A stretch of DNA of 64,000 bases from a virus. Shown piece by piece: positions 604 to 62,378 of this stretch. The stretch's first letter is position 1. Each line of letters opens with the position of its first letter. The DNA lies in the IMG/VR virus record IMGVR_UViG_3300045988_175656. One strand, given 5' to 3'. A model generated the notes under the pieces. That model worked only from the letters and a program-made list of their open reading frames with translations. It was not told the origin of the DNA and made no database searches. The translations under genes and the position numbers were made by a program.

Positions 604-690
604 TAGAAAAAGATAATCAAGTTGGAATCACTGAAACATTCTAAATGAAATTTTTAAAATTCATATTATTTATATATAAAATGTGATAAT

Positions 691-5952: not shown

Positions 5953-5961
5953 TAAGAAAAT

Positions 5962-5992
5962 GGGGATATTAACAAGTGTCCCCTTTTCTTTT
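5962..5992 (+). terminator. putative rho-independent terminator
   Basis: ggggata..tgtcccc hairpin followed by ttttctttt. Confidence 0.45.
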
Positions 5993-6009
5993 AAAAACAA
6001 TCAAAAACT

Positions 6010-6189
6010 ATGAGAAAGATTGTATTATTTTTAGTATTGGTTATTATATTGGCATTTGTCATGCCTAGTTTATTAAATGTAGTATTTACCATTGGAGTTT
6101 TGGTAATTATGACTGTTTTCGGTTATGCTATCTATAAAATAGTAAAGTTTATAGATAACACAAACAAAAAGAAAGAGATGAAACAATAG
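6010..6189 (+). CDS. small two-TM membrane protein (59 aa, below ORF-track cutoff)
   Basis: hand-translated MRKIVLFLVLVIILAFVMPSLLNVVFTIGVLVIMTVFGYAIYKIV..; lies between binding-protein and permease genes. Confidence 0.4.
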   Translation: MRKIVLFLVLVIILAFVMPSLLNVVFTIGVLVIMTVFGYAIYKIVKFIDNTNKKKEMKQ

Positions 6190-6215
6190 ATTGTATAATC
6201 TAAAATAAAACAATA

Positions 6216-7082
6216 ATGTTTAAAAAATTATTCAAAATGGGTGGAGATAGTAATTTTAATAAACTATCTTTACTTTTGATAACCATAATAGGTTTCACAT
6301 TAATAATTGGTGCGTGGTATTTTGTAACTTATTTACAAATTATTCCAACCAAAGTACTTCCTAATCCTTTTGATGTAATTGGGAGCTATGGTAAATTGAT
6401 TAGTGAATATAACATGTTTGGTAATGCGTGGTATTCAATTAAATTAAATTTTATGAGTTATTTTTATGCAATTTTGATAGCATTACCAATTGGATTTTTT
6501 ATTGCATTATATCCTATTAATAATATTTTAATTGGTAAATATATTAATTCTGTTAGGTATTTACCAATTCCTGCAATGAGTGGTATTTTTATTGCTATAT
6601 TTGGTTTAACATTTGGCATGAAAGTGTCTTTTTTAACATTTGCGTTATTAATTTATATTTTACCAGCAGTTGCTAATAAAGTTAATGATTTACAAAATCC
6701 AAATAATGATAAAGATTATGTGTATCTTCAAACGATAAGAACATTGGGTGGTAGTAATTGGCAAAAGTTTAAATATGTTTATTTTCCTTATGTAACACGA
6801 AATATTTCAAATGAAATTATTAATTTAACAGGTATTTCATGGTCATATGTTGTTATTTGTGAATTACTTTATAAAGACGGTTCAATTAGTGGTATTGGGG
6901 CGATGATTAATAATATGATGCGCCAATCTTATGTGCCTGAAGCATATGCTTTATTATTTTTAGTAATTCTTATTGGGTTTGGGCAAGATTATTTGTTGAA
7001 AGGATTGGATAAAGTATTATTTCCATCAAAATACAATAAAAAGCCGTTTAAAATTAGTAATTGGTTTGTAACAGAAAAATAA
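6216..7082 (+). CDS. ABC transporter permease (NitT/TauT-like)
   Basis: about 6 hydrophobic segments; sits between binding-protein and ATPase genes; 6-nt gap to the ATPase. Confidence 0.7.
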   Translation: MFKKLFKMGGDSNFNKLSLLLITIIGFTLIIGAWYFVTYLQIIPTKVLPNPFDVIGSYGKLISEYNMFGNAWYSIKLNFMSYFYAILIALPIGFFIALYPINNILIGKYINSVRYLPIPAMSGIFIAIFGLTFGMKVSFLTFALLIYILPAVANKVNDLQNPNNDKDYVYLQTIRTLGGSNWQKFKYVYFPYVTRNISNEIINLTGISWSYVVICELLYKDGSISGIGAMINNMMRQSYVPEAYALLFLVILIGFGQDYLLKGLDKVLFPSKYNKKPFKISNWFVTEK

Positions 7083-7088
7083 TAAAAT

Positions 7089-8147
7089 ATGGCAGGAAGA
7101 TTTACATCACTTTTTTCAAAAAGTGAAAAAAAGCCTGAACAAACAGTTCAGCAAACAATTGAAGTTGTAGAACAAACGACTTCTCCAGAAGTCATTGATA
7201 TTCAACAAACAATTACAGAAACAGCAAAAAAGAGTGCATCATTTTTAAATGGGGTTATGGATATTGTAAAAGAAGAATTATCAATACCACCAGTAACAAA
7301 TATTGTATCTACTCCTATTCAACAAGATACAAATGGAAAATTTGAGTGTGAAGCTGTTGATGTTATTAATTTATCAAATATTTGCCAATCATTTAAAACT
7401 GATAATGGTGAGTTTAAATTATTTGATAATTTTAATTTAGATATTAAAGATTTTAAAGATGTTGGACAATTTGTTTCCATTATGGGGGCTTCAGGTTGTG
7501 GTAAATCACAATTGTTGAAAATTATATCAGGACTAAATAAACCAACATCAGGTTCAATCAAAATATATGGTAAAGAACAAACAGATAAAGATTCTATACC
7601 AATGGTATTTCAGCAATATAGTTCTTATCCTTGGATGACTGTACTTGAAAATGTAGCACTTCCTCTTAAAATGAGAGGTGTCCCTAAAAAAGAACGAGAA
7701 GAACAAGCTCGTAATATGTTAAAAATTGTAGGATTAGAGGGACAAGAAAATAAATGGGCGCAATATCCAATTTTAAGTGGTGGTCAATTACAACGTGTAT
7801 CTCTTGCTCGTAATCTTGTATTTTCATCACAAATTTTGTTATTAGATGAAGCAACTGGGGCATTGGATATTAAGTCTAAAAGAGATATGCAAGATACACT
7901 TTTAGATGTGTTTTATAACGCAAAACTTGACCCAACTATCATTTCAGTAACACATTCAATTGAAGAAGCTGTTTATTTGTCAAATAGAGTTTATATATTG
8001 ACTGCTAATCCATGTACAATTCATTCTGTAATTGATATTGATTTTGGAAGCCAATATGCAAGAAGAACTTCTGAAGTTAGACAAACAGCTAAATTTGCTG
8101 AATATGTTAAACAAATTGAGACTATAATGGATGAAATAAACAAATAA
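7089..8147 (+). CDS. ABC transporter ATP-binding protein with ~110-aa N-terminal extension
   Basis: Walker A GASGCGKSQ, signature LSGGQLQRVSLAR, Walker B LLLDEATGALD, H-loop VTHS. Confidence 0.9.
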   Translation: MAGRFTSLFSKSEKKPEQTVQQTIEVVEQTTSPEVIDIQQTITETAKKSASFLNGVMDIVKEELSIPPVTNIVSTPIQQDTNGKFECEAVDVINLSNICQSFKTDNGEFKLFDNFNLDIKDFKDVGQFVSIMGASGCGKSQLLKIISGLNKPTSGSIKIYGKEQTDKDSIPMVFQQYSSYPWMTVLENVALPLKMRGVPKKEREEQARNMLKIVGLEGQENKWAQYPILSGGQLQRVSLARNLVFSSQILLLDEATGALDIKSKRDMQDTLLDVFYNAKLDPTIISVTHSIEEAVYLSNRVYILTANPCTIHSVIDIDFGSQYARRTSEVRQTAKFAEYVKQIETIMDEINK

Positions 8148-8219: not shown

Positions 8220-10142
8220 ATGAAAAGAATTTTAGGTATTGATTTAGGCTCTACAAACTCAGCAGTGAGTGTGATTGAGAGTGGAAAAGCAATAATTGTA
8301 GTTAATGAGGAAGGTAGAAGAACTACCCCATCTGTGATTGCATTAAAGAATGGGGAAAGAAAAGTTGGAGAAGCTGCAAAAAGACAACGTGTTGTTAATC
8401 CTAAAGAAACTGTATCAATAATTAAAAGATTTATGGGGGCTGATTTTAATTCTTCTGAATGTCAAGAAGCTATTAAAAAAGTACCTTATGAAATTATTAA
8501 TAAGGATGGTAAAGCAAGAGTTCTAATTGAAAACAGAGAATATTCTCCTGAAGAATTATCTTCTTATATCATTTCTAAACTTAAAAAATGTGCCGAAGAT
8601 TATGTAGGTGGGGAAATTAAAGATGCTGTTATTACAGTTCCAGCATATTTTAATGATTCACAACGTACAGCAACTAAAGTCGCAGGTGAACTAGCTGGTT
8701 TGAATGTGTTAAGAATTATTAATGAACCAACAGCAGCTATTCTTTCTTCTGATATTGATATTAAACATGGTGAGAAAAATATTATGGTGTGTGACTTTGG
8801 TGGTGCAACAACTGATTTTTCTGTATGTAATTTGTCAGAAGGATTAACAGAAGTATTATCAACTTATGGTGATGTATTCCTAGGTGGTAGTGATATTGAT
8901 AATGCTATTGCAGAATGGATTATAAGCTCATTTAATGAAGAAAATGGTGTGGATTTAAAGAGTGATGCCCAAGCATTACAACGTGTCGTAGAAGCGGCTG
9001 AAACTGCTAAAATAGAGCTATCATCTTCTAGTTCTGCTGAAATTAATTTGCCTTATATTTGTAGTAAAGATAATACACCATTACATTTACAATATACATT
9101 AACAAGAGCTAAGTTTAATCAATTAACACAACCATTGATTGATAAACTGATTAAATGTGGTAAAGAGTCTTTGAAAAAAGCAAATCTTAAAGCAAATGAA
9201 CTTAATGGTATTTTGCTTGTTGGTGGGTCTTGTCGTTGTTTGAATGTACAAGATGCTTTAACCAAAGAATTTGGTGTAGAACTATTGAAATCAGCTAATT
9301 TGGATGAAGCTGTTTCATTAGGTGCAGCTATTCAAGCTAATATTATAGTTGGTGGAGAAGGAAGTTCTGATATGGTATTACTTGATGTAACTCCACTTTC
9401 AATGGGTATTGAAACAATGGGTAATGTGATGACAAAACTTATTGATGCAAATACAACAATTCCATGCAAAAAAAGCCAAATTTTCACAACTGCTGTGGAT
9501 AATCAGCCATCTGTTGATATTCATGTATTACAAGGTGAAAGACCAATGGCTAAAGATAATAAAACAATTGGTATGTTCCAATTAACTGATATTTTACCAG
9601 CAAGACGTGGTGTGCCACAAATTGAAGTAACATTTGATATTGATGCTAATGGTATTTTGAATGTTTCTGCAAAAGATAAAGGTACAGGAAAAGAACAGTC
9701 AATTAGAATTGAAGCAAGTAATGGTCTTTCTGATGCTGAAATTGAAAAAATCAAGCAAGAAGCAAAAGAACATGAAGCAGCAGATAAGAAATTGAAAGAA
9801 GAAGCTGATATAATTAATAATGGAGATGCTATGGTTTTTCAAACTGAAAAACAGATTGAAGAATATGGTGATAAAATTTCTTCAGATAGTAAGAAATCTT
9901 TAGAAGAACTAATTGAAAAGTTAAAAAATTCTTTAAAAGATAGAAATATATCTGATATTAAAGAAAACACTGATAAAATCACATCACAATGGCAAAAAAT
10001 TACTTCTGAAATGTATGCAACAGGTACTAATGGTGGTACATCTAATTTTGAAGATATTTTAAGAGGTGCAGCAAATGGTAATACAAAAACAGATACCAAA
10101 GAAGATAATGTAACTGATGCTGATTTTGAAGAAGTTAAATAA
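8220..10142 (+). CDS. dnaK: Hsp70 chaperone DnaK
   Basis: [69 protein letters not shown]; full length 640 aa. Confidence 0.95.
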
Positions 10143-10193
10143 TATTTAAGGTAAATTAACATTAATAATGGTGCAGATTACGAATTAATTTTG

Positions 10194-10203
10194 TATATTT
10201 GTA
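10194..10203 (+). promoter_or_regulatory. Bacteroidota-type -7 promoter box
   Basis: tatatttgta upstream of dnaJ; bracketed by inverted repeat 10164-10172 / 10203-10211. Confidence 0.5.
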
Positions 10204-10239
10204 CCATTATTGGTTTAATAACACATTAAAGAAAGATAT

Positions 10240-11331
10240 ATGGCAGAAAAAAGAGATTATTATGAAGTGCTAGGAGTTGATAGAAATTCATCAAATGATG
10301 ATATTAAAAAGGCATATCGTAAGAAAGCAATTGTATTACATCCTGATAAACAACAAGGAAAAACAGATGAAGAAAAGAAAATAGCAGAAGAAGAGTTTAA
10401 AGAAGTTGCTGAAGCATATGAAGTTTTATCAAACCCTCAAAAAAGAACTGAATATGACCAATTTGGTTTTGCTGGACGTAATGGTCAAGGATTTGATATT
10501 AACATGCAAGACATCATGGAAGAAATGATGCGTATGAATCCATTTGGCAATCCATTTCATAGAAATCAATCACGCCAATATATGAAAGGTAGTGATATAA
10601 GAATACCACTTGTTTTATCATTAGAAGATATATTTAATGGGGTGCATAAAACAGGCAAATATAAAAGAAAAATAAAATGTCCTGATTGTAATGGTCTAGG
10701 TGCAAAAAATAAAGATGATATAACAGAATGTCCTCATTGTCATGGTACAGGTGTGTATGTTGAAACTGTAATGCAAGGAAATATGATTTTTCAGAATCAA
10801 ACAACATGCCCATATTGTTATGGTAAAGGTAAAATAGTTTCCAAACCATGTGATAGATGTCATGGAGAAGGTCTTATCACAGTTGAAGAGACTATTGAGA
10901 TTGATGTACCAAAAGGGGTAGAAGAAAATATGGCAATAACATTTAATGGTATGGGAAACTTCCCACAAGGAGAAGGTGTTCCTGGGGATTTAATTGTCAT
11001 TATTAAACTTAAACCTCATGGTAGATTTGATAAACAAGGTGCAACAATTTATGCAATGAAAGAAGTGTCAGTTATTGATTGTATTCTGGGTGTTAATTCT
11101 ACAATTCAGGGGATTGATGGAAATATTTACAAATTTAGAATACGTCAAGGTACAATGAATGGTGAACAATATAGGATTGCAGGAAAAGGTTTGCCAATAC
11201 TTCATACTGATAAACGTGGTGATTTGATTGTTATGATTAAACAAGATATGCCAAAAAATCTTACATCAGAAGAAATTGAATTGCTAAAAAAGTTAAGAGA
11301 AATGCCACATTTTAAAACTGAAGAAGAATGA
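10240..11331 (+). CDS. dnaJ: Hsp40 co-chaperone DnaJ (type I)
   Basis: J domain [12 protein letters not shown]; four CxxCxGxG zinc motifs ([32 protein letters not shown]); C-terminal substrate-binding region. Confidence 0.9.
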
Positions 11332-12422: not shown

Positions 12423-12932
12423 ATGAGCAAATCCGCAGGTATTATTCCATATAGAATCAATAATGGACATATCGAATTTTTTGTTGGTCATCCAGGCGGT
12501 CCTTATTGGAAAAACAACCCATATTATGCGTTTTTAAAAGGCGGTCTTGAAGAAGGTGAGGATAGTTTTATGGCTGCAATTAGGGAATTTAAAGAGGAAT
12601 CAGGATTATCTCTTCCATCAGTTCCATTTATTAGTTTAGGTGCAGTAAAACAAAACTCTAAAAAAACTGTTTATGCTTATGGGGCATTGTTTGATATTGA
12701 CCCTGAGAAATGCTTTTCAAATGAATGTGAAGTGGAACACCCATCTAATTCAGGCATTAAAATAAAAATACCAGAAATTGATAAATATGCTTGGATGACT
12801 TTTGATAAGTTAAAAGAAATTACCAATAAAAACCATTTACTTTTTTATAAAGAAATTATAAATTATGAAAGAAATCAGGGCTTATATAAAGGTATAATGG
12901 ATGAAAATGGAAACATTATTAATGAAAAGTAA
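12423..12932 (+). CDS. Nudix hydrolase
   Basis: Nudix box GGLEEGEDSFMAAIREFKEESGL; HPGGPYW as in COG4119-type Nudix proteins. Confidence 0.75.
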   Translation: MSKSAGIIPYRINNGHIEFFVGHPGGPYWKNNPYYAFLKGGLEEGEDSFMAAIREFKEESGLSLPSVPFISLGAVKQNSKKTVYAYGALFDIDPEKCFSNECEVEHPSNSGIKIKIPEIDKYAWMTFDKLKEITNKNHLLFYKEIINYERNQGLYKGIMDENGNIINEK

Positions 12933-14129: not shown

Positions 14130-14648
14130 ATGGCTAATATTAAAAATAAAATAAATGAACCACGAATTAATGACGAAATTTGTGGTGTTGAAACAGTTAG
14201 AATTGTTGGAGACAACATTGAAAGTCGTGAAATTTCTCTTAGAGAAGCTAAGAGAATTGCAAGCAATTTGGAACTGGATTTAGTTGAAATTAACGGAAAT
14301 GTCAACCCACCTATTGTTAAAGTGGTAGACTATTCAAAATATATGTTTGAACTAAAAAAAGCATTAAAGAATAAAAATAAGAAAAATTGTGTTTTGAAAG
14401 AAATACAGTTAAGTACAAACATATCATCTAATGACCTTAACACAAAGGTCAGAAAAGCAAAAGAATTTATTGAGGATGGTAATAAGGTAAAAGTTGTTTT
14501 AACAATGAAAGGGCGTGAATTAGGACGTAGAGAAGATTCTAAGAAATCGTTATTGACTTTTATTGTTGAAATGGATGAAGTAGCTGTACCTGAGTCACTA
14601 CCCAGAGATGAAGGAAATAAGTGTACTGTTATTTTAAAGAAAAAATAA
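14130..14648 (+). CDS. infC: translation initiation factor IF-3 homologue
   Basis: INDEICGVETVRIVGDN..LDLVEIN..PPIVKVVDYSKYMFE (N domain) and KEIQLSTNISSNDLNTKVRKAKEFIEDGNKVKVVLTMKGRE (C domain). Confidence 0.85.
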   Translation: MANIKNKINEPRINDEICGVETVRIVGDNIESREISLREAKRIASNLELDLVEINGNVNPPIVKVVDYSKYMFELKKALKNKNKKNCVLKEIQLSTNISSNDLNTKVRKAKEFIEDGNKVKVVLTMKGRELGRREDSKKSLLTFIVEMDEVAVPESLPRDEGNKCTVILKKK

Positions 14649-14662
14649 ATTTTAATTAATAT

Positions 14663-15553
14663 ATGGCTTTAATTGTAGATTGCAAATCATCAAGTTTATA
14701 TTGGAATCGTAATAATGTTACAATGTTATATTTTGATGATATTAAAAAGTATGATATACTTACACCGACAGAAGAATATGAATTATTTGAAAAAATAAAG
14801 TTTGGTACTCCATCGGAAAAAGTAAAAGCGAGAGAAAAAATAATACAATGTAATCAACGATTTATTGTATCAGCAGCAAGAAGATGGTCAACATATAACA
14901 ATCTTCCTGATTTAATCAATGAAGCAAACATTGGATTGATGAAAGCCATTGATAATTTTGACCATACAATTAATAAAAGGTTTTTAACTTATGCAATATG
15001 GTGGATTCGCAAAGAGTTGAATGCATATTTAATAACAAAGGAAAATGTTGTAAAAACAAAAAATGCACATAAAATATATACTTCAGCAAATAAAGTTAGA
15101 AACGAATTTTATTCACGTGAAGGTAGATACCCAACCACTGAAGAAATAAAAGAATTAATTTATAAAAATTATAATTATGATATTCGTCATAATGAAGATT
15201 TATATGAGTTAAGAGTTTCATCAATTGATGAAACCTATTCTAATGATGGTGATGATGCAAGTTTTACAATGGAAGATAATAGTGAATATGCAATGGTTTC
15301 TTCAAGTTGTAACATTGAAGAAAATATTGAGAAAGACTATGAAAAAAGTTTTGTAGAATCATTATTGGTAACATTAAATGACAGAGAACAAGAAATAATT
15401 AAATTGTTATATGGCATTAATGAAGTTCGAGAGTTAAGTATTGATGAAGTTGCAGATAAATTGAATATGTCTCGTGAGAGAGTAAGACAATTAAAGTTTG
15501 CAATTCTTGATAAATTGAAAAAAGAGATGGAAGAGCTAAGAATAGCTATATAA
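14663..15553 (+). CDS. RNA polymerase sigma-70 family factor
   Basis: region 2: EANIGLMKAIDNFD, FLTYAIWWIRKEL; region 4.2: SIDEVADKLNMSRERVRQLKFAILDKLKKE. Confidence 0.85.
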   Translation: MALIVDCKSSSLYWNRNNVTMLYFDDIKKYDILTPTEEYELFEKIKFGTPSEKVKAREKIIQCNQRFIVSAARRWSTYNNLPDLINEANIGLMKAIDNFDHTINKRFLTYAIWWIRKELNAYLITKENVVKTKNAHKIYTSANKVRNEFYSREGRYPTTEEIKELIYKNYNYDIRHNEDLYELRVSSIDETYSNDGDDASFTMEDNSEYAMVSSSCNIEENIEKDYEKSFVESLLVTLNDREQEIIKLLYGINEVRELSIDEVADKLNMSRERVRQLKFAILDKLKKEMEELRIAI

Positions 15554-22799: not shown

Positions 22800-23336
22800 A
22801 TGAATATGAATTGTTGTAGTAATGAAAGCAAAGCAACTTTGGCTTATGTAAATGATTGTGGTTCAAGTGAAATTTTAACCAAAGAAGTGGACTTGTCAAG
22901 TAAAGAAAGTGTTTTGAAAAGACATAAAGAATTAGAACAAGTACAAAGAAATTTGTATGATAAAATGGAGAATCTAGGAAAGAAATATACAGAATTGTTT
23001 AAGACAGAATTAATTAATAGAAATATTAAAGGCAAATGTTTTGTCTCTGATAAAAATATTAATAGTTGTTATGGTCCAATAAACGATGTTAAGTCCAAAT
23101 ATGTTGAATATTTTAGAGTGACAGAAATTAAATATGTATATTATAATTCAATTACATTAGTTTGCGATTTTTTTAATAAATATGAAGATGAAAATTCAAA
23201 GAAAGCGTATCATTTTGGTCATGGTGTAATTGAAGTACTTCATTCAGCTCTTGATGAAAAGAATGAAATTACACTTCAAGAATTTAAGCAAAAACGTGAA
23301 GAATATTTTAATGAATATAAAGAATATGTTCAATGA
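22800..23336 (+). CDS. hypothetical protein
   Basis: ORF track. Confidence 0.55.
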   Translation: MNMNCCSNESKATLAYVNDCGSSEILTKEVDLSSKESVLKRHKELEQVQRNLYDKMENLGKKYTELFKTELINRNIKGKCFVSDKNINSCYGPINDVKSKYVEYFRVTEIKYVYYNSITLVCDFFNKYEDENSKKAYHFGHGVIEVLHSALDEKNEITLQEFKQKREEYFNEYKEYVQ

Positions 23337-23809
23337 GAGTAAATAAAGATTATGTATTTTTCTGGGGAAGCGAATTTTCTAATTGGTTTCCCTCAGAATT
23401 TCAGTTAGAAGGAAAGAAGTTCTATAATGCAGAACAATATTTCATGTATAAAAAAGCTAAATTTTTTAACGATGAAGAAATGGCTATGGCTATTTTGTGT
23501 ACTGATGACCCTAAAGTAGCTAAGAAATTAGGACGTAAAGTTAAAAATTTTAAAGATATTGCTTGGTCAAAAGTTCGTAAAGAATATATGAAAGAAGCTT
23601 GTAGAGCTAAATTTACACAAAATTTAGATTTAAAAGAGAAACTTCTTAGTCATAAAACACAAACTTATGTTGAAGCTTCTCCTTATGATATTATTTGGGG
23701 TGTTGGATTAAGTGAGGACAATCCACAAATAAATAATAAGGAGAATTGGTTAGGAAAAAATCTTTTAGGAGAAGTTTTAACTGAATTAAGAGATGAACTT
23801 AGTAAATAA
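23333..23809 (+). CDS. NADAR (YbiA/DUF1768) family protein
   Basis: FFWGSEFSNWFPS, YNAEQYFMYKKAKFF, IIWGVGL; ATGA overlap upstream. Confidence 0.7.
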   Translation: MRVNKDYVFFWGSEFSNWFPSEFQLEGKKFYNAEQYFMYKKAKFFNDEEMAMAILCTDDPKVAKKLGRKVKNFKDIAWSKVRKEYMKEACRAKFTQNLDLKEKLLSHKTQTYVEASPYDIIWGVGLSEDNPQINNKENWLGKNLLGEVLTELRDELSK

Positions 23810-33721: not shown

Positions 33722-34579
33722 ATGAGATTAGATACTTTAGAAAAAAGAATGCTATATTATCGCAGTTTAACTGATTATAAACTATTACCAAATGCGCCTG
33801 TATTATTAATGTTAGATGGTAGGGCATTTTCCAAGTTTTGTAAAAGATTTGAAAAACCATATGATGAAAAATTTATTGATATGATGAATCAAACAGCCCA
33901 ATATTTGTGCGAAAACATTGAAGGTTGTAAATTTGCATATGTACAATCAGATGAAATTTCTCTTTATGTGACTGATATGGAGAATGAAAATTCTGAAAGT
34001 TGGTTTAGTTATCGAATGGTAAAAATGTGTTCTATTGCAGCAAGTTTGGCTACGGCTAAATTCAACCAATTGTTAATGATTGATTATTTAAATGAAAAAT
34101 CAATTGAAACATTAAAAGAACAGAAACTAGTTGAATTTGATTGCAAAGTGTGGAATGTACCAACTTTAAATGATGTTTTTGCGTGGTTTTTGTTTCGCCA
34201 AATTGATTGCATAAGAAATTCTAAACAAATGGCTGCTCAAACTTTCATTCCTCATGACCAATTAAAATGTTTGCACACTGACCAACAAATTGCAAAACTT
34301 AAAGAATGGAAAGGTATTGATTGGAATGATTATTCAGATGATAAAAAATTTGGTCGTTTTCTTTATAAGGAAAGTGTAGTAATTCCTTATATTATTCCTG
34401 AAAAATTTAAGAATGGTAAACTACCAGATAAAATGTTAGAAACACTTATTACTGAAGATAATGATGATGGAACTTTTTATTACATTGAACGTAATAAATG
34501 GATTGCTCACAATGGTTTTGAACTAACAACTGAAGAAGGTAAACAGCAATTTTATGACATACTAGGATGGCAACAATAA
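33722..34579 (+). CDS. Thg1-like protein (tRNA-His guanylyltransferase / 3'-5' RNA polymerase family)
   Basis: LLMLDGRAFSKFCKRFEKPYDEKF and YVQSDEISL match the Thg1 catalytic motifs. Confidence 0.85.
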   Translation: MRLDTLEKRMLYYRSLTDYKLLPNAPVLLMLDGRAFSKFCKRFEKPYDEKFIDMMNQTAQYLCENIEGCKFAYVQSDEISLYVTDMENENSESWFSYRMVKMCSIAASLATAKFNQLLMIDYLNEKSIETLKEQKLVEFDCKVWNVPTLNDVFAWFLFRQIDCIRNSKQMAAQTFIPHDQLKCLHTDQQIAKLKEWKGIDWNDYSDDKKFGRFLYKESVVIPYIIPEKFKNGKLPDKMLETLITEDNDDGTFYYIERNKWIAHNGFELTTEEGKQQFYDILGWQQ

Positions 34580-34607: not shown

Positions 34608-34633
34608 TGAATGAGATTATATAATCTCATTCA
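34608..34633. terminator. hairpin at convergent gene junction
   Basis: tgaatgagatta / taatctcattca palindrome; overlaps the 3' end of the minus-strand gene. Confidence 0.45.
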
Positions 34634-35552
34634 ATAATTCATTATGATTTGTAAATACCTTAGATATATATAAATTATTACTTTTATCTGAGTGAGTATA
34701 GTATAGAATTTTTATATTATTGTGCTTACATAAATCATATTTTAACTTATTATTTTTAGATAATTTAATAAAATTTTGTAAACCACCAAAATAATTAATT
34801 GGTTTGAAATGCTGTTCACCCTGACATTCAATCGCAATATTATAATCAGGAAGATAAAAGTCTAATCTTAATTTATATTTTGATTTAAGCCAATCAAATG
34901 TTTTCTCTCGTTCATAATTAATATTGTTTATTTCTAAAAAATTAGATATTTCATTTTCTAATTTTGATTCATTACAAATAGGGCATCCTTTACTTTGTAA
35001 GTGATTGTGTGGCGTTTGCCAAAACTCACCATGTTCAGGACAAACAATACAAACTTTTGTGCAATTGTTTACATAATTTACTTTTGAATAATCGTATTTA
35101 TTGCCATGTATTTCTTTTGCTTTAGTAATAAATTTTTCATTTGTTAATTTGTTATTATCATTTCTATGCTTATTGGCACAAATGGGACATCCTTGCTTTT
35201 GATGGATATGTTTATATAGTGATTGCTGAAATTCACCATGTTCAGGACATATAATTGTTGATTTGGTATCAATATTTAAATAATGAAATTTTGAATAATC
35301 ATATTTATCACCATGTATTTGAATTGCATATTCAACCCATTCATTAATAGTTTTATATAAACCACGACATTTGGGGCAACCATGTTTTCGATTAATATGT
35401 TTAACAGGTGTTTGCCAAAACTCACCATGTTCAGGGCAAATAATACAAACTTTTGTTTTATTGTTTATATATTCTACTTTTGAATAATCATATTTGTTAC
35501 CATGAACTTCCATAGCTCTCTTTATAAAATTCTCAGTTGTGTTTTGTTTCAT
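34617..35552 (-). CDS. free-standing homing-endonuclease-like protein (3 zinc-ribbon repeats plus DUF559/Vsr-like nuclease fold)
   Basis: three copies of GNKYDYSKV.Y.N..TKV.I(I/V)CPEHGEFWQTP..H....GCP.C; C-terminal LDFYLPDYNIAIECQGEQHF; lone minus-strand gene between + genes; paralogue at 56941. Confidence 0.6.
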   Translation of the reverse strand: MKQNTTENFIKRAMEVHGNKYDYSKVEYINNKTKVCIICPEHGEFWQTPVKHINRKHGCPKCRGLYKTINEWVEYAIQIHGDKYDYSKFHYLNIDTKSTIICPEHGEFQQSLYKHIHQKQGCPICANKHRNDNNKLTNEKFITKAKEIHGNKYDYSKVNYVNNCTKVCIVCPEHGEFWQTPHNHLQSKGCPICNESKLENEISNFLEINNINYEREKTFDWLKSKYKLRLDFYLPDYNIAIECQGEQHFKPINYFGGLQNFIKLSKNNKLKYDLCKHNNIKILYYTHSDKSNNLYISKVFTNHNELLNEII

Positions 35553-42767: not shown

Positions 42768-43337
42768 ATGCTTAAATTATCTGATATTAGAAAGCCATTA
42801 AAAATTGATGTTCAATCACCTTGTGTTATAACAAGACTTGGGAGGATTGAAAACAGATATGACATTGATTGGGATATTATATTAAGCAATGGGAAACCAT
42901 TACAAAGAGATTTTTGTTGGTCACATGAACAAAAATCTGAATTGATATTATCAGTTCTTAAAAATATTCCAATACCACCTTTTAGTTTTATAATTGGCGG
43001 TAAAGATGACAAAACATTAAGAGTTATTGATGGTAAACAAAGATTATCAACTTTAATTGATTTTTATAAAGGGGTAATTTCATTTCATTATGAAGGGAAA
43101 AATTATTTTTATAAAGATTTAGATAAATCTGCACAATTTGAATTTGAATATTTTGATATTATGGCTTCAGTGGCTTATGAGCCTTTCGTTGAAGATACAC
43201 AATTAAGAAAAACAGAAAAATGTGTACCATTTAATGATGAAGATATTATTGAATGGTTTAAATTAATCAATTTTGCAGGAACACCTCAAAATAAAGAGCA
43301 TTTAAATTATTTAAATAGTATTATTAAAAATAGTTAA
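42768..43337 (+). CDS. DUF262 (ParB-like nuclease/NTPase domain) protein
   Basis: IPIPPFSF..LRVIDGKQRLSTL matches the DUF262 DGQQR motif; no DUF1524/HNH half present. Confidence 0.55.
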   Translation: MLKLSDIRKPLKIDVQSPCVITRLGRIENRYDIDWDIILSNGKPLQRDFCWSHEQKSELILSVLKNIPIPPFSFIIGGKDDKTLRVIDGKQRLSTLIDFYKGVISFHYEGKNYFYKDLDKSAQFEFEYFDIMASVAYEPFVEDTQLRKTEKCVPFNDEDIIEWFKLINFAGTPQNKEHLNYLNSIIKNS

Positions 43338-43375
43338 ACTTTATATTAATATTTGGTAGTATGAAAATTTTGCCA

Positions 43376-43385
43376 TATATTTGCA
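43376..43385 (+). promoter_or_regulatory. Bacteroidota-type promoter
   Basis: tatatttgca, with TTTG at 43352-43355 (20-nt spacer). Confidence 0.6.
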
Positions 43386-43416
43386 CTATAAATTAATAAC
43401 AATAATAAAAAATAAC

Positions 43417-44637
43417 ATGGGACAAATAATTAACAGTATTCTTGACACAGATTTATATTCATTTAGTATTCAGTATCTTTATTTACAAAAATTTCCTCGT
43501 GCAAAAGGAACTTTTAAATTTAAAGATAGAAGTAACACAGTTTATCCAGAAGGGTTTGCTGAAAAAGTAATGTCTGAAGTTAGAAAGATGGATAATCTTC
43601 AGCTTCAAGATGATGAAGCTGAATGGATGGAAAATAAGTTGTATTATTTTCCTAAATGGTATATTACAACCTTTTTAAAAGGTTATCGCTTTAATTCTAA
43701 AGAAGTTAGTTTGCGGCAAGATGAAGAAGGGCATTTACATGGGGAGATAAAAGGATATTTGTGGAGAACCCTTTTTTGGGAAGAACCAATTTTGGCAATT
43801 GTATCAGAACTTTATCATAAAGAAATAGGAGAAGTAGCTGATTTACAAGAAGTGGCTGAAATTACACGAAGAAAATTTGAAAAATTCCAATTACATGGCA
43901 TTACATTTTCTGATTTTGGAACACGTAGACGTTTTTCATTTGCTGTACAAGAAACTGTTGTGAAAGTATTTGATGACTTATCAAAACTATATGCTCGTGG
44001 GACATCTAAAGATAGAATCTGTTTCAAAGGCACATCAAATACATATTTGGCATTTAAATATGATTTGACACCTATTGGCACAATGGCACATCAAATTGTA
44101 TCAGCAATTGGCGCACTGTTTGGTTATAAAGAAGCTAATTATTTAGCAATGGAAAATTGGTTTGATGTTTATAATGCAGACCTTGGAATTTTTCTTTATG
44201 ACACTTATGGATGGGATGCATTTGAAAAGAACTTTGCCAAAAAACATGCACTTCTCTATGATGGATTACGAGTTGATTCAGGTGATAATATTGACCAATT
44301 AGAAAAAATTATTGCCAAATATATATCTCTTGGAATTGACCCATCAACTAAAAGTGTTGTATTTTCAAATGCACTAACAACTGATGATGCAGTCCAAATT
44401 CATTTAAAAGTACGTGGGCGTATTAAAGATAGTTATGGAATTGGTACACATTTCACTTGTGATATTCCAGGTGTTAAACCGTTGAATATTGTCATTAAAT
44501 TAGATGAAGTATCTATTACTGAAAAAACCGAAACTAAAAAAGCAGTAAAACTATCTAATGATTTTGGAAAATATACTGGAGATGCTGATGAAGTACAAAT
44601 AGCATTACTAACTTTAGGTATAAAAAATAAAGAATAA
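43417..44637 (+). CDS. pncB: nicotinate phosphoribosyltransferase
   Basis: near end-to-end resemblance to E. coli PncB as I remember it: LDTDLYSFS, FSDFGTRRRFS..VQETVV, GTSN, LTPIGTMAHQ, LRVDSGD, GIDP..K.VVFSN.L, SYGIGTHFTCDIPGVKPLNIVIKL. Confidence 0.9.
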   Translation: MGQIINSILDTDLYSFSIQYLYLQKFPRAKGTFKFKDRSNTVYPEGFAEKVMSEVRKMDNLQLQDDEAEWMENKLYYFPKWYITTFLKGYRFNSKEVSLRQDEEGHLHGEIKGYLWRTLFWEEPILAIVSELYHKEIGEVADLQEVAEITRRKFEKFQLHGITFSDFGTRRRFSFAVQETVVKVFDDLSKLYARGTSKDRICFKGTSNTYLAFKYDLTPIGTMAHQIVSAIGALFGYKEANYLAMENWFDVYNADLGIFLYDTYGWDAFEKNFAKKHALLYDGLRVDSGDNIDQLEKIIAKYISLGIDPSTKSVVFSNALTTDDAVQIHLKVRGRIKDSYGIGTHFTCDIPGVKPLNIVIKLDEVSITEKTETKKAVKLSNDFGKYTGDADEVQIALLTLGIKNKE

Positions 44638-44918
44638 TGGGTGTTATGGATGCAGTACTAATAACATTATTTATAATAACATGGATTGTATGTATAGTTA
44701 TTGTAAATATATTTATATATGAGTCTTATAAAGAAGAACATAATGGAATAACAACAGGTCAAACTATTGTAATGAACACTATTGGAATACTGCCACTTTT
44801 TAATCAATTGTATGTAATATATTGGTTAATAATGAAAGCATATCGTAATAGAAAAATAATTCTTAAAGGTTTTTCATTGACAAATATTTTTAATTCATTT
44901 AAAGTATTAAAATTATAA
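44637..44918 (+). CDS. small membrane protein
   Basis: ORF track; two hydrophobic segments. Confidence 0.5.
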   Translation: MGVMDAVLITLFIITWIVCIVIVNIFIYESYKEEHNGITTGQTIVMNTIGILPLFNQLYVIYWLIMKAYRNRKIILKGFSLTNIFNSFKVLKL

Positions 44919-44921
44919 TTC

Positions 44922-45395
44922 ATGGGCATATTAGTATTTTTTTGGTTACTTGCTATTGCAATACTTTTGTTTCTTGTAATAAATATTATTAATTTTCTAT
45001 ACACTAAAAATATTAAATACAGAGAATTAAAAAGAAGATACAGAGAATATGTAAATTATATTAAAGCAAATCAATATATTTTTGAAACAGCAATCAAAAC
45101 TTTTGATGAAATCAAAGATGATAAATTTGAGGAAATGTTATCTGATGAATCAGTTGTTTTTGGTATAAGAACTAAAGATGGAAAATTAGCTTGTTTTAAT
45201 TCTAATAATTTAATGAATGTGAAATTTGGGACTTATGTATTTCATATACCTTATATTAAAGAATATAGAAATACAATAAAAAAGTTACAATTTCATATTA
45301 ATCATATTTCTCTTAGCAGAAAATTTAATGCTGATAAAGAAACAATTGATAAAGCACATAAAATTAAAGACGATATATTAAAAAATAACTTATAA
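44922..45395 (+). CDS. membrane-anchored protein
   Basis: ORF track; N-terminal TM. Confidence 0.5.
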   Translation: MGILVFFWLLAIAILLFLVINIINFLYTKNIKYRELKRRYREYVNYIKANQYIFETAIKTFDEIKDDKFEEMLSDESVVFGIRTKDGKLACFNSNNLMNVKFGTYVFHIPYIKEYRNTIKKLQFHINHISLSRKFNADKETIDKAHKIKDDILKNNL

Positions 45396-45399
45396 TTAA

Positions 45400-45834
45400 A
45401 TGAACGAATTAAAATACAATAATGAAGAAAGACTTACTAATTTTAAAGAACATTTTGGCAAATTAGTAAATAATTGTAAAGCATTTGATTATATGCTAAA
45501 TGAATTACTGCAATTAGAAGATAAGAGATTAGTATATATCATCATCAATAAATTTTGGTTTATTGAACGACAAAGATGCCACTATTGGAACAATTTACCA
45601 AAAAATGTAAAAAGTTATTATAGACCATATTTTATAAAAAATATGAGAAATGTAATGATAACTACATTAAGTAAATGTGGTTCTATTGATATAACTGCTC
45701 ATATGATAACTGAAGAGGGAAAACCTGTATGGGCTGATGAATCTGAAACTGCATATCAATTTAATAAATCAAGATGTCATGGTTTTGTTTTAAATGTTCT
45801 CTCTACTTATTTTAAAATAAGATGTAAAGTATGA
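45400..45834 (+). CDS. hypothetical protein
   Basis: ORF track. Confidence 0.5.
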   Translation: MNELKYNNEERLTNFKEHFGKLVNNCKAFDYMLNELLQLEDKRLVYIIINKFWFIERQRCHYWNNLPKNVKSYYRPYFIKNMRNVMITTLSKCGSIDITAHMITEEGKPVWADESETAYQFNKSRCHGFVLNVLSTYFKIRCKV

Positions 45835-46115
45835 AACGAATTTATATAGATTATACCCATATTGGTGGTAATAGTTATCAAATTGGTTTAATGGATGAAC
45901 ATAATTTATCAACTATTTATTTTATGACAGTTATATGGTCAGATGATAATAGTCCACAAATTATAATTCCTTCAACAAAATTGTTACATAAACAATGTTA
46001 TGATGAAATTAGTAGTATATTATATTCAATAAATTCTGACCAAGAAGAAATTTCAAAAAAGAAACTATCTGATATACTGTTGACCAATGGATATACAAAA
46101 AATCCACTAAATTAA
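45831..46115 (+). CDS. hypothetical protein
   Basis: ORF track; ATGA overlap. Confidence 0.5.
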   Translation: MKRIYIDYTHIGGNSYQIGLMDEHNLSTIYFMTVIWSDDNSPQIIIPSTKLLHKQCYDEISSILYSINSDQEEISKKKLSDILLTNGYTKNPLN

Positions 46116-46123
46116 TCAATTTT

Positions 46124-46149
46124 AACGAGAATTCTTTTGGATTCTCGTT
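46124..46149 (+). terminator. rho-independent terminator whose loop carries the next promoter's TTTG
   Basis: aacgagaat tcttttgg attctcgtt followed by tttt; near-copy of the module at 40625. Confidence 0.65.
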
Positions 46150-46158
46150 TTTTGTTTG

Positions 46159-46168
46159 TATATTTGCA
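46159..46168 (+). promoter_or_regulatory. Bacteroidota-type -7 promoter box
   Basis: tatatttgca; ATG at 46204. Confidence 0.6.
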
Positions 46169-56030: not shown

Positions 56031-56040
56031 TATATTTGCA
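56031..56040 (+). promoter_or_regulatory. Bacteroidota-type -7 promoter box
   Basis: tatatttgca; ATG at 56066. Confidence 0.6.
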
Positions 56041-56065: not shown

Positions 56066-56851
56066 ATGAAGAAAAGAGCAATTTTAGGTATTGACCTACA
56101 AAACGATTTCGTTTTAATTAATGGTGCTTTGAGTGTGAATGGTGCAGAAGAAGATGCAAAACGTATTGGTGCATTTATTTCTAATAATAAGAAAGATATT
56201 CATCACATTTCTCTAACACTTGATTCACATCACCCTTTGCACATTGCAAACCCTATCTATTGGAAAGATAAAGATGGCAATCATCCTTCACCTTTCACAG
56301 TGATTACTTACCAAGACATTAAAGATGGTAAATGGACTACATCTATTAACCCACAATGGTCTTTCCGTTATGTAGAAGAGTTGGAAAAACAAGGAAGCCA
56401 ACTAACAATTTGGAATGAACACTGCCTCCTTGGTACTGATGGATGGGCAATTGTTACTCCTGTTATCAAAGCATGTATTGAATGGGAAGAAACTAATTGT
56501 AAGCCTTATAATTTGTGGTTTAAAGGAAGTAATTGGTTTACTGAACATTATAGCATTTTTAAAGCTGCTGTAACATATCCTGGTGCTCCTGAGACTGATT
56601 TGAATCAACAATTAATTCAGGTATTGAATGAATATGATGAAGTTTATATTTGTGGAGAAGCAATGAATTATTGTTGTTTGAATAGTATTAAAGATTTGAA
56701 TACATATGCTCCAGATTTAATGAAAAAAGTATTAATTCTTGAAGATTGTATGTCTCCTATTGGCACTTTTGACATCAATACAGACCCAGTTTATCAAGAA
56801 GCTGTTCGTTTAGGGGCAAAAATTATAAAATCAACTGATGTTTTGTTTTAA
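56066..56851 (+). CDS. pncA: isochorismatase-family hydrolase, nicotinamidase-like
   Basis: AILGIDLQNDF..GALSV.G, LTLDSHHP, ICGEAMNYCCLNS (catalytic Cys context). Confidence 0.65.
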   Translation: MKKRAILGIDLQNDFVLINGALSVNGAEEDAKRIGAFISNNKKDIHHISLTLDSHHPLHIANPIYWKDKDGNHPSPFTVITYQDIKDGKWTTSINPQWSFRYVEELEKQGSQLTIWNEHCLLGTDGWAIVTPVIKACIEWEETNCKPYNLWFKGSNWFTEHYSIFKAAVTYPGAPETDLNQQLIQVLNEYDEVYICGEAMNYCCLNSIKDLNTYAPDLMKKVLILEDCMSPIGTFDINTDPVYQEAVRLGAKIIKSTDVLF

Positions 56852-56940
56852 CACAATTTGAACAATATTTTATTACTGTATATACTTTATTTTTTATTGT
56901 TATTTTTGAGTTAAATCATTATATTTATAATAAAAATATA

Positions 56941-58572
56941 ATGAATACTGAAGAATTTATAAAAAAAGCTAAAAGTATATATGGTAATAAATACAATTAT
57001 TCAAAAATAAATTATGTTAATGCAAAAACCAAAGTTTGTGTAATATGCCCTGAACATGGAGAATTTTGGCAATTACCATATAGTCATTTTGTAAGAGGTT
57101 GTAATAAATGTTCAAAACCAATTTTCGATAAAGATTCTTTTATTAAAAAAGCTAAAGAGATACATGGGAACAAATATGATTATTCTAAAGTAAAATATGT
57201 AAAATGTTCTGAGAAAGTTTGTGTAATATGCCCTGAACATGGAGAATTTTGGGTATCACCAAATAATCATTGTAATGGTAAACACAAACAAGGATGTCCT
57301 AAATGTGGAAAATTAGAAGCTCAAAAAGATAATAAAAAACGTCTTGTAACAGCAGCTAATTCATTTATTCAGAAAGCACAGGAGATTCATGGGGATAAAT
57401 ATGATTATTCAAAAGTGATATATAAAGGGGCACATAAAAAAGTTTGTCTAATATGTCCTGAACATGGTGAATTTTGGCAAACACCTGATAAACATATTAA
57501 TGCTAAACAAGGATGTCCTAAATGTAAAGAAAGCTTATTAGAAAAAGAAGTAAGATTATTGTTAGATTGCAACAACATATATTATGAGCAAGAATATTCT
57601 GCCAAATGGTTAGGAAAACAACGTTTAGATTTTTATTTACCTAATTATGGTATTGCAATTGAATGCCAAGGAGAACAACATTATAGACCAATTGATTTTG
57701 CTAACAAAGGAAATGAATGGGCTAAAAAATCGTTTTTACAAACCCTAAAAAATGATTATAATAAAAAAAGAAAATTAATTGAAAATAATATTGAACTTAT
57801 ATATTACACAAAACCAGAATTAAAACAAATAAATGAATTTATAGATAAAGAAGATTTATTAACATATATAAAAAATAAAAAGATGAACGAACAAGAAACT
57901 TTTCAAACAACAATGGGTATTAATTTTACCAATTTTGATGTAAATAATATCCAAGAAGCTGAAACTATCAATGTAGTATTTGTTATTGATAAATCATCTT
58001 CAACAAACCGTTTTATCAATGACTTGAACAACACATTGAATGAGTTTTTACATGAATTTCAACGTTCTCATGTAGCAAGTAAAATGCTTATTTCAGTTAT
58101 TGAATTTAATGATAAAATTGATGTTGTTTCAGCATTTCAACCTATTTCAGACTTGAAAGACTTTAATGTTCAACCTTATGGTTGCACAAATCTTTATGGA
58201 GCAGTTCTTGCAGGTCTTGAAAATGCTGTACAATATCGTAAAGACCTTGAAAATAATGGAATTAGTGTAAAAACACTTGTTTTCATTATTACTGATGGCG
58301 AAGATAATGAAGGAGTTGACCCATCATTGGTAAAACAAAAAATTGATGAAATTTATCAAGATGAATCAAATTGTTTTAGTTTCACTGTTATGATGTTTGG
58401 TCTTGGTGATGAAGCTAATTTTGATGAAGCTCGTGAAAAAATGGGTATTAAACCTGAAATGCTTGGCAAACTTGGAGCTACTGCTAAAGATTTGCGTAAA
58501 ATGGTGTCATTTATTTCAAGTTCCGTTTCTTCAAGTGCAAGCGGACAAAATGTTTCTGCAATCACATTCTAA
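56941..58572 (+). CDS. homing-endonuclease-like module fused in frame to a vWA (TerY-like) domain
   Basis: aa 1-300: three KY(N/D)YSKx.Y..CPEHGEFW repeats plus RLDFYLPNYGIAIECQGEQHY; from the ATG at 57883: vWA with VVFVIDKSSSTN, GCTNLYGA, FIITDGEDN; no stop between the two parts. Confidence 0.6.
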   Translation: MNTEEFIKKAKSIYGNKYNYSKINYVNAKTKVCVICPEHGEFWQLPYSHFVRGCNKCSKPIFDKDSFIKKAKEIHGNKYDYSKVKYVKCSEKVCVICPEHGEFWVSPNNHCNGKHKQGCPKCGKLEAQKDNKKRLVTAANSFIQKAQEIHGDKYDYSKVIYKGAHKKVCLICPEHGEFWQTPDKHINAKQGCPKCKESLLEKEVRLLLDCNNIYYEQEYSAKWLGKQRLDFYLPNYGIAIECQGEQHYRPIDFANKGNEWAKKSFLQTLKNDYNKKRKLIENNIELIYYTKPELKQINEFIDKEDLLTYIKNKKMNEQETFQTTMGINFTNFDVNNIQEAETINVVFVIDKSSSTNRFINDLNNTLNEFLHEFQRSHVASKMLISVIEFNDKIDVVSAFQPISDLKDFNVQPYGCTNLYGAVLAGLENAVQYRKDLENNGISVKTLVFIITDGEDNEGVDPSLVKQKIDEIYQDESNCFSFTVMMFGLGDEANFDEAREKMGIKPEMLGKLGATAKDLRKMVSFISSSVSSSASGQNVSAITF

Positions 58573-61802: not shown

Positions 61803-62378
61803 ATGGCAAACACATTAAAAGTTACAAGAAAAATTTTAGAAAATATAGTAGAAAATACCATTAATGAAGTAATGAATGAAATAACTGCTTATCATGGAAC
61901 TGATGCTAATTTTGATAATTTTGATTTAGCATATATGGGAACAGGAGCAGGTAAACAAGATTATGGATATGGTATCTACTTATCAATACTCCCTGATGGT
62001 ACACAACAATATGGTAAAAATGCTTATACAGTTGAAATCCCAAGTGATAACAAAAAATATTTAATAGCAGATAAAGTTTATTCTCCATCTTTTGTTAATA
62101 AACTTAAAAATAAACTTTATCAACTTATTATCACACAAGATGATACCTATAAAGGTGCAGAAAAAGAATTAATGCAAGATTTGAATATTACCTTCAATGA
62201 TATTGATGGCACTAGTATATATGGCAGCATTGAAACTTATTTAGGAAGTGATAAAAGAACTTCAGAATTCCTTTACTCAATGGGTTTTATTGGTCTTAAA
62301 TATCGCAATGGAAAATATGAGAATGTAGTTATGTTTAACCCGAAAGATATTAAAATTATAAATAAGAAATTGGGATAA
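61803..62378 (+). CDS. hypothetical protein with YHGT..FD..GTGAG..YGYGIY module (polyvalent-protein / ART-like, tentative)
   Basis: AYHGTDANFDNFDLAYMGTGAGKQDYGYGIYLS resembles a module I recall at N-termini of phage/plasmid polyvalent proteins. Confidence 0.5.
   Translation: MANTLKVTRKILENIVENTINEVMNEITAYHGTDANFDNFDLAYMGTGAGKQDYGYGIYLSILPDGTQQYGKNAYTVEIPSDNKKYLIADKVYSPSFVNKLKNKLYQLIITQDDTYKGAEKELMQDLNITFNDIDGTSIYGSIETYLGSDKRTSEFLYSMGFIGLKYRNGKYENVVMFNPKDIKIINKKLG

Follow-up and report, generated by a model that had tools for sequence, protein, structure and literature searches.

The 64-kb stretch of viral DNA analysed here (IMG/VR record IMGVR_UViG_3300045988_175656; hereafter the window, by which the whole of this stretch is meant) carries two genes for the salvage of nicotinamide adenine dinucleotide (NAD+), namely pncB, encoding a nicotinate phosphoribosyltransferase, and a gene for a predicted long-form nicotinamidase, while a third gene of the same pathway, encoding the NAD synthase NadE, lies just upstream of it. 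The window has a G+C content of 25–33% with nearly all of its genes on the + strand, and no DNA-level match to it was found among GenBank phages (megablast of positions 43000–45000 returned nothing). Two near-identical contigs were identified in IMG/VR, UViG_3300045988_175545 (379,916 bp; PncB 99% identical to that of the window) and UViG_3300045988_179933 (232,397 bp; PncB 98% and nicotinamidase-like protein 100% identical), referred to below as contigs 175545 and 179933. Given the size of these contigs (380 and 232 kb), the window is part of the genome of a huge phage. The host is most likely a member of the Bacteroidota, as indicated by the promoter class, a weak BACON match, OmpA lipoprotein-like genes and the Dysgonomonas and Prevotella homologs of the nicotinamidase-like protein. 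It is proposed that genes for deamidated (Preiss–Handler) salvage of NAD+ are present in this phage as a dispersed set, which probably serves to sustain NAD+ in the infected cell when it is drained.

The pncB gene

The open reading frame (ORF) listed for pncB (43381–44637) begins with a TTG codon lying within the −7 box of the promoter described below, and the true start is therefore most likely the ATG at 43417, giving a product of 406 residues. With this start, the protein has the N-terminus MGQIINSILDTDLY..., and its alignment with solved PncB begins at residue 4. Both Pfam domains of the family were identified, NAPRTase_N (PF17767) at residues 9–130 (E = 2.2e-27) and NAPRTase (PF04095) at residues 163–377 (E = 1.8e-45), and the protein passes the thresholds set for TIGR01514, an NCBIfam equivalog model (363.7 bits, cut-off 269.55, with model positions 1–397 of 399 covered), and for PRK05321 (398.6 bits, cut-off 379). 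The closest solved structure is 2IM5, which we take to be a Porphyromonas enzyme, aligned over residues 4–405 (E = 2.4e-105). As the alignments with 2IM5 and TIGR01514 run from end to end, the resemblance spans the whole length of the protein, and the full-length PncB that had been claimed from the sequence at the outset is borne out. The GTMAH motif is kept, with His225 aligning with the histidine of 2IM5 and 1YIR; ATP hydrolysis is presumably coupled through autophosphorylation of the histidine in this GT-x-AH motif.

The gene is under strong purifying selection, the ratio of nonsynonymous to synonymous substitution rates (dN/dS) being 0.03–0.09 when compared with three relatives by the Nei-Gojobori method. 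Judged by these features, PncB is an orthodox, full-length enzyme that looks functional, and it is predicted to form nicotinate mononucleotide (NaMN) from nicotinate and phosphoribosyl pyrophosphate (PRPP) with the ATP coupling of its family. Its homologs on phage-like metagenomic contigs share 88–99% identity with it, with a further series at 57–78%, and cellular homologs share 52–57% overall (52–54% for named cellular PncBs). The gene is rare in catalogued phages, a tblastn match being obtained in 13 of 50,697 GenBank phage records, and none of the PHROG families matches the protein. The possibility that it is a Namat-like enzyme with an unusual ribosyl donor was rejected because the equivalog cut-off is passed and a PRPS-like partner is absent. 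The gene immediately 5′ of pncB (42768–43337) possesses a GmrSD_N (DUF262-type) domain only (61.5 bits), and the same neighbor is found in the relative L001.

Promoter and transcription unit of pncB

The TTTG-N20-TATATTTG arrangement reported in the original prediction is present before pncB and ends 33 nt 5′ of the ATG at 43417 (Table 1). The window holds 20 copies of the pattern TTTG-N19–21-TAnnTTTG where 3.9 would be expected, an approximately five-fold enrichment; none of 100 shuffles gave as many as 20, and 13 of the 16 copies on the + strand are located 22–131 nt upstream of the next + strand gene, in a window of which 5.5% is intergenic (non-coding). This had been described as a phage promoter belonging to pncB itself. 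The pattern is really the consensus published for sigma-ABfr, the primary sigma factor of the Bacteroidota (PMC7366714), and the promoter class is common to about 13 transcription units of the window. Sites of the Escherichia coli type (TTGACA/TATAAT) are not enriched, with 37 found against 47 expected, and a sigma-70 reading of the pncB promoter was rejected for that reason.

Downstream, the unit continues into four small ORFs, the first of which has an ATG (44637) overlapping the stop codon of pncB, and no promoter match occurs between pncB and these ORFs. The first two have a hydrophobic N-terminus and none of the four has a Pfam or PHROG match; only the last of them is kept after pncB in the relative L001. 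A terminator-like hairpin followed by a T-run closes the unit.

Table 1. Positions of the features discussed in the text (numbering of the window unless a contig is named).
Feature	Position	Strand	Remarks
Bacteroidota-type promoter of the pncB unit	43352–43383	+	−33 TTTG 43352–43355, 20-nt spacer, −7 TATATTTG 43376–43383
pncB, nicotinate phosphoribosyltransferase, 406 aa	43417–44637	+	TIGR01514, both Pfam domains, 2IM5, low dN/dS
Four small ORFs (93, 157, 144 and 94 aa)	44637–46115	+	tightly packed 3′ of pncB
Terminator-like hairpin and T-run closing the pncB unit	46124–46149	+	overlaps −33 TTTG of next promoter (46136–46166)
−7 box TATATTTG of the nicotinamidase-like gene	56031–56038	+	27 nt 5′ of gene; −33 position is TTTT, not TTTG
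Predicted long-form nicotinamidase (PncA/Pnc1-like cysteine hydrolase), 261 aa	56066–56851	+	fold and active-site residues
VWA-domain protein adjoining the nicotinamidase-like gene	56941–58572	+	VWA match at residues 344–505
Nicotinamidase-like/VWA gene pairs	window 56066–58572; L091 10001–11485; L093 33020–34560		three phage lineages; adjacency recorded in L091 and LR756500
NAD/ADP-ribose-related genes (NADAR, NUDIX, ART-PolyVal-like, in that order)	23333–23809, 12423–12932, 61803–62378		
Host-like genes: DnaK (713 bits), DnaJ, IF3, sigma-70-family protein, Thg1-like tRNA-His guanylyltransferase	8220–11331, 14130–15553, 33722–34579		

Predicted long-form nicotinamidase

The nicotinamidase-like gene that had been placed at 56066 is a real ORF of 261 codons, the product of which fits a nicotinamidase in its fold and active-site residues. 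When the protein was compared with the PDB using phmmer, yeast Pnc1 was the first match (E = 2.7e-9) and PncA of Mycobacterium tuberculosis the second. Residues D10, K153 and C203 align with D8, K122 and C167 of Pnc1, A199 (the alanine located four positions ahead of the cysteine) with A163, D53, H55 and H119 with D51, H53 and H94, and F15 and W116 with F13 and W91. We take D8, K122 and C167 of Pnc1 to be its catalytic triad and D51, H53 and H94 its zinc ligands; a metal site of Asp-x-His with a distal His separates nicotinamidases from other members of the family. The triad, the metal-site residues, F15 and W116 are all invariant in an alignment of 37 homologs (43–87% identical).

An AlphaFold model built on this alignment reached a pLDDT of 96.9 and a pTM of 0.92, and when it was compared with the PDB using Foldseek, ranks 1–20 were all nicotinamidases (target-normalized TM-score 0.67–0.79; Pnc1 at E = 1.3e-14), with biuret hydrolase, carbamoylsarcosine amidase and maleamate amidase ranking lower. 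The phage protein is longer than the solved enzymes of 180–216 residues because of two insertions, at approximately residues 62–112 and 155–180 (roughly 50 and 25 residues). On the basis of the alignment and the model, its predicted reaction is the hydrolysis of nicotinamide, yielding nicotinate and ammonia. Members of the long-form family are encoded by huge phages and, in Dysgonomonas, on the chromosome, and cellular homologs of the protein occur in Dysgonomonas and Prevotella.

The region 56644–57863 of the window is a mosaic relative to contig 175545, in which the last third of the nicotinamidase-like gene has been swapped for a divergent version with the GEA-x3-C motif kept. The dN/dS of 0.49 obtained for the gene against this contig was not used, as the comparison is with a recombination mosaic. 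The adjoining gene encodes a VWA-domain protein, the N-terminal DUF723/zinc-finger repeats of which are absent from contig 175545. A nicotinamidase-like gene followed by a VWA gene was observed in three phage lineages that otherwise differ in gene order.

NadE and the search for NadD

Pfam scans for the families of the pathway, which took in window ORFs of about 65 residues or more, gave no match in the window to the NAD synthase, cytidylyltransferase-like (NadD/NMNAT), Nampt, NadR or PnuC families, and none of the gene sets of the phage NAD+ reconstitution pathways NARP1, NARP2 and NARP3 (Adps with Namat, Nampt with Nmnat, and PnuC with NadR, respectively) was found among the Pfam matches of these ORFs. 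In relatives, NadE lies 6 kb from PncB (L002, PncB 63% identical) or directly adjoins a homolog of the third ORF of the window (two relatives of 282–351 kb). By walking upstream from the first ORF of the window in contig 175545, it was possible to locate a 287-residue NH3-type NadE (PF02540, 106 bits), which ends 597 nt before the base equivalent to window position 1, and a 93% identical copy occupies the same place in contig 179933. Scanning IMG/VR with L002 NadE as a single query protein returned nothing, and none of the 80 loci fetched from a NadE profile scan of IMG/VR came from the window's own contig.

NadD was sought in approximately 94 kb, made up of the window and ~30 kb of flanking sequence from near-identical contigs, against a length of 380 kb for contig 175545. 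No CTP_transf_like (Pfam) match occurs in the window, nor in the flanks covered in contig 175545 (~20 kb on the upstream side and 10 kb on the downstream side). A NadD hidden Markov model (HMM) built from 74 phage sequences gave no match to the six-frame ORFs of the window and its flanks (L094, L097), nor to positions 40–90 kb of LR756500, a 50-kb region holding NadE, a long nicotinamidase and PncB, and a tblastn search with the NadD of the compact cassette described below gave no huge-phage match. The original prediction had made the route dependent on NadD and NadE of the host and had suggested a search for NadD, NadE or Nmnat homologs. With NadE encoded by the phage in both near-identical contigs, ~0.6 kb upstream of the window, the pathway does not depend on host NadE and that half of the claim falls; as to the half concerning NadD, neither NadD nor NMNAT was found in the window and its flanks.

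Other proteins related to NAD or ADP-ribose are also encoded in the window, namely a NUDIX hydrolase and a protein with a NADAR domain (158 bits), together with a weak, sub-cut-off match to an ART-PolyVal-like ADP-ribosyltransferase. In a 392-kb relative, a gene with a CinA domain (PF02464; L091 16141–16665) lies between Thg1 and a protein kinase, and the same slot in the window is taken by a minus-strand DUF723/zinc-finger ORF (34617–35552). PF02464 is presumably the domain of PncC-type deamidases of nicotinamide mononucleotide (NMN).

Occurrence of the gene set in other phages

Other phages share these genes. A long nicotinamidase and PncB are encoded together by LR756500 (462 kb) and also by LR756511 (595 kb), and in LR756500 NadE, the long-form nicotinamidase and PncB occur within 34 kb, with Tpt1 also present. 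On a 401-kb IMG/VR contig (L041), PncB, a 203-residue ORF, NadE and two long-form nicotinamidase paralogs are contained within 5 kb. The 203-residue ORF, which lies between PncB and NadE, was considered as a hidden NadD and rejected, as neither the HMM nor hhalign (probability 0.3%) gave anything.

The NadE profile scan of IMG/VR gave 174 loci, and the following counts refer to the 80 that were fetched and to genes within 6 kb of NadE. PncB was found beside NadE in 76 of these loci, a NadD-like gene in 74 and a nicotinamidase homolog in 75 (short-form in the loci inspected), with all four genes occurring together in 72. This compact PncA-PncB-NadE-NadD cassette (L008–L087, e.g., L012 3805–8472) is found mostly on contigs of 60–190 kb, which fall below the 200-kb limit of the published jumbo-phage study (Li et al., 2024; PMC11662467). 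The order in L012 is PncA, PncB, NadE, an AAA_28 kinase-like gene and a CTP_transf_like gene. Across phage lineages pncB is kept at 41–99% identity and always with partner genes. The gene set is thus widespread in gut phages, and the arrangement of the window is a dispersed version of it.

Genomic context

The remainder of the window holds cargo of the type found in huge phages: DnaK, DnaJ, a sigma-70-family protein, IF3, Thg1 and an RNA ligase, together with an HD/AAA_33 protein, a Ser/Thr kinase, a PP2C phosphatase-family protein, two VWA proteins, OmpA-domain proteins, an ABC ATPase, SSB and Ham1. Tail-fiber-like ORFs are located on the minus strand, and no tRNA genes were found in the window. 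An ABC-importer-like set (4360–8147) is flanked by DnaK/DnaJ and by the NadE side of the genome; it comprises a 530-residue protein in which an OmpA domain is joined to an NMT1/THI5-like substrate-binding domain, an ABC ATPase and a 288-residue hydrophobic protein with no Pfam match.

Near its start the window has a GIY-YIG ORF with repeated modules (691–1641), an insertion that is probably a homing endonuclease; contig 175545 lacks window positions 638–1648, and its identity to the window is 98.5% on one side of this point and 93% on the other. Directly downstream of the window end, contig 175545 encodes a Cas3-like protein of 779 residues (L094 11202–16442) with HD, DEAD helicase and Cas3 C-terminal domains. 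A Cas6 match was also obtained among the scanned flank ORFs, not placed on a specific ORF, and the phage probably carries a CRISPR-Cas system.

Comparison with known pathways

The Preiss–Handler route in phages is not new, being known from sequence analysis of gut jumbo phages. In the study of Li et al. (2024; Microbiome 12:268), complete salvage or Preiss–Handler pathways were reported for 174 of 668 gut jumbo phages, a pncB-nadD-nadE cluster was given as an example and phage pncA was mentioned, the hosts predicted for the main clade being Bacteroidota only (PMC11662467). Both NAD+ self-supply and counter-defense were proposed in that study, the authors stressing that neither had been tested experimentally (PMC11662467). 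The phage of the window resembles these "NAD-jumbo phages" (Kuafu clade) as a huge gut phage with a predicted Bacteroidota host and pncB with nadE; the likeness is one of gene content and predicted host, and no Kuafu marker genes occur in the window. It differs from the published cluster in that its genes are spread over about 57 kb, its nicotinamidase is of the 261-residue long form and no nadD was found in ~94 kb.

Bacterial deamidated salvage (PncA, PncB, NadD, NadE) makes use of the same enzyme families, with PncB matching at the equivalog level and cellular PncB and nicotinamidases being the closest solved structures to the phage proteins. The genes of the window differ in being phage-encoded and separately promoted, with NadD not seen and with two insertions in the nicotinamidase. 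The four-gene IMG/VR cassette (e.g., L012) represents the same pathway, but it is compact, has a short canonical PncA (about 190 residues) and its own NadD (CTP_transf_like), and its PncB is 41–47% identical to that of the window; some of its copies also have the AAA_28 kinase-like gene.

Of the reconstitution pathways that have been tested, NARP1 (Adps with Namat) and NARP2 (Nampt with Nmnat) were described by Osterman et al., whose preprint makes no mention of nicotinate, PncA, PncB or NadE, and NARP3 (PnuC with NadR) was published in 2026 (PMC13464706). In NARP2, as in the NadV/NatV system of Vibrio phage KVP40, NAD+ is rebuilt from nicotinamide and PRPP in the infected cell, which is also the case for the route proposed here; these systems, however, take the amidated route via NMN with two enzymes, whereas that of the window would proceed through nicotinate, NaMN and nicotinate adenine dinucleotide (NaAD) and needs NadE. 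NARP1 and NARP3 are likewise phage pathways restoring NAD+, but the former reuses ADP-ribose via ADP-ribose pyrophosphate (ADPR-PP) and the latter imports nicotinamide riboside, and no PRPS-like protein, PnuC or NadR was found in the window. The deamidated route had originally been presented as a third one. Preiss–Handler sets were already published in 2024 (PMC11662467) and, with NARP3 now published (PMC13464706), it would be the fourth.

Proposed role of the genes

The enzyme activities, the flux through the pathway and its biological role, as put forward here, are predictions, for which homology gives good support as far as the biochemistry is concerned. The long-form nicotinamidase would convert nicotinamide to nicotinate, from which PncB would form NaMN with PRPP. 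This chemistry, as first suggested for the two genes, remains the natural reading of a pair that is present and looks functional. NaMN would then be converted to NaAD, either by host NadD or by a phage adenylyltransferase encoded outside the ~94 kb read, and the NH3-dependent NadE of the phage would complete the synthesis of NAD+. With a full primary-sigma promoter before pncB and a −7 box before the nicotinamidase-like gene, both genes should be transcribable without phage factors. The drain on NAD+ may come from NADase defenses of the host, which release nicotinamide, or from NAD+-using enzymes of the phage itself.

A number of observations weigh against this reading. The phage-encoded pathway is incomplete as seen, there being no NadD or NMNAT in the window, in its ~30 kb of flanks or in the 50 kb of LR756500. 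The two genes are 11.4 kb apart in separate transcription units and may therefore not be co-regulated. The nicotinamidase-like protein falls below the cut-offs of the curated models, scoring 19.9 bits against 27 for Pfam Isochorismatase and 30.3 bits against 174 for NCBIfam PRK11609, the latter over the N-terminal 56 residues only. Removal of nicotinamide is known in yeast to relieve product inhibition of Sir2 enzymes; a nicotinamidase would likewise remove the inhibitor of a sirtuin-type NADase, and so it may speed the loss of NAD+ unless resynthesis keeps pace.

These sub-threshold scores raise the question of whether the 261-residue protein could be another metal-dependent cysteine amidohydrolase, perhaps acting with its VWA partner, with PncB salvaging only pre-formed nicotinate. 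The two insertions that set it apart from the solved enzymes, the conserved adjacency of the VWA gene in three lineages and the Dysgonomonas copy, which does not adjoin NAD genes, would all agree with this. It is nonetheless considered unlikely, given that the six catalytic and metal residues, F15 and W116 are invariant, that Foldseek ranks nicotinamidases over every other enzyme of the isochorismatase family, that two paralogs of the protein lie beside PncB and NadE in L041 and that a short canonical PncA takes the equivalent place in 75 of the 80 cassettes. It is far less probable still that the genes entered the phage recently, as passengers that play no part in infection. Cellular PncB homologs (52–57% identity) are only slightly more distant than some of the phage ones, as would be expected of such passengers, but the low dN/dS of pncB, its retention with partner genes across phage lineages and its own consensus promoter all speak against them.

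With regard to the purpose of NAD+ salvage, counter-defense and general provisioning are both plausible and do not exclude each other. That the genes form a NARP-like system, selected specifically to rebuild NAD+ from the nicotinamide freed by TIR, SIR2 and SEFIR NADases, is possible: the product of these NADases is the entry substrate of the nicotinamidase, NARP1, NARP2 and NARP3 provide precedent for the defeat of NADase defenses by the rebuilding of NAD+, NADAR and NUDIX proteins are also encoded in the window, and such a role has been proposed by Li et al. (PMC11662467). Against this, no paper was found that couples a nicotinamidase with phage anti-defense or tests a gene of the deamidated route in phage counter-defense, clearance of nicotinamide may de-inhibit the NADases, and the four enzymes and three ATP-consuming steps make the route slower and costlier than NARP1 or NARP2. 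It is also possible, though slightly less likely, that a huge phage with a long cycle tops up NAD+ from the niacin and nicotinamide that abound in the gut, to the benefit of its own NAD+-using enzymes and of host metabolism and irrespective of any defense. The presence of Tpt1, a NAD+-dependent RNA 2′-phosphotransferase, beside NadE in relatives, and of other host-like housekeeping genes in the window (DnaK, DnaJ, IF3, sigma factor, ABC transporter), would suit such provisioning, but the window itself showed neither a ligase nor a dehydrogenase dependent on NAD+.

A broader suggestion can be made only tentatively, namely that the deamidated route may constitute a fourth phage NAD+ reconstitution pathway, occurring commonly as the compact cassette in gut phages and, in huge Bacteroidota phages such as that of the window, in a form reduced or dispersed to nicotinamidase, PncB and NadE, with the essential NadD borrowed from the host, and that it may overcome NADase defenses by using up the nicotinamide that they release. 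The window offers a natural comparison of the dispersed three-gene form with the compact four-gene cassette, which would itself be a handy construct to set against NADase defenses, and the long-form nicotinamidase represents an uncharacterized branch within a familiar family of enzymes. Should the route work as proposed, phages of the Bacteroidota, a dominant gut phylum, would rebuild NAD+ by the chemistry of their hosts, adding a fourth pathway to the three already tested (NARP1, NARP2 and NARP3).

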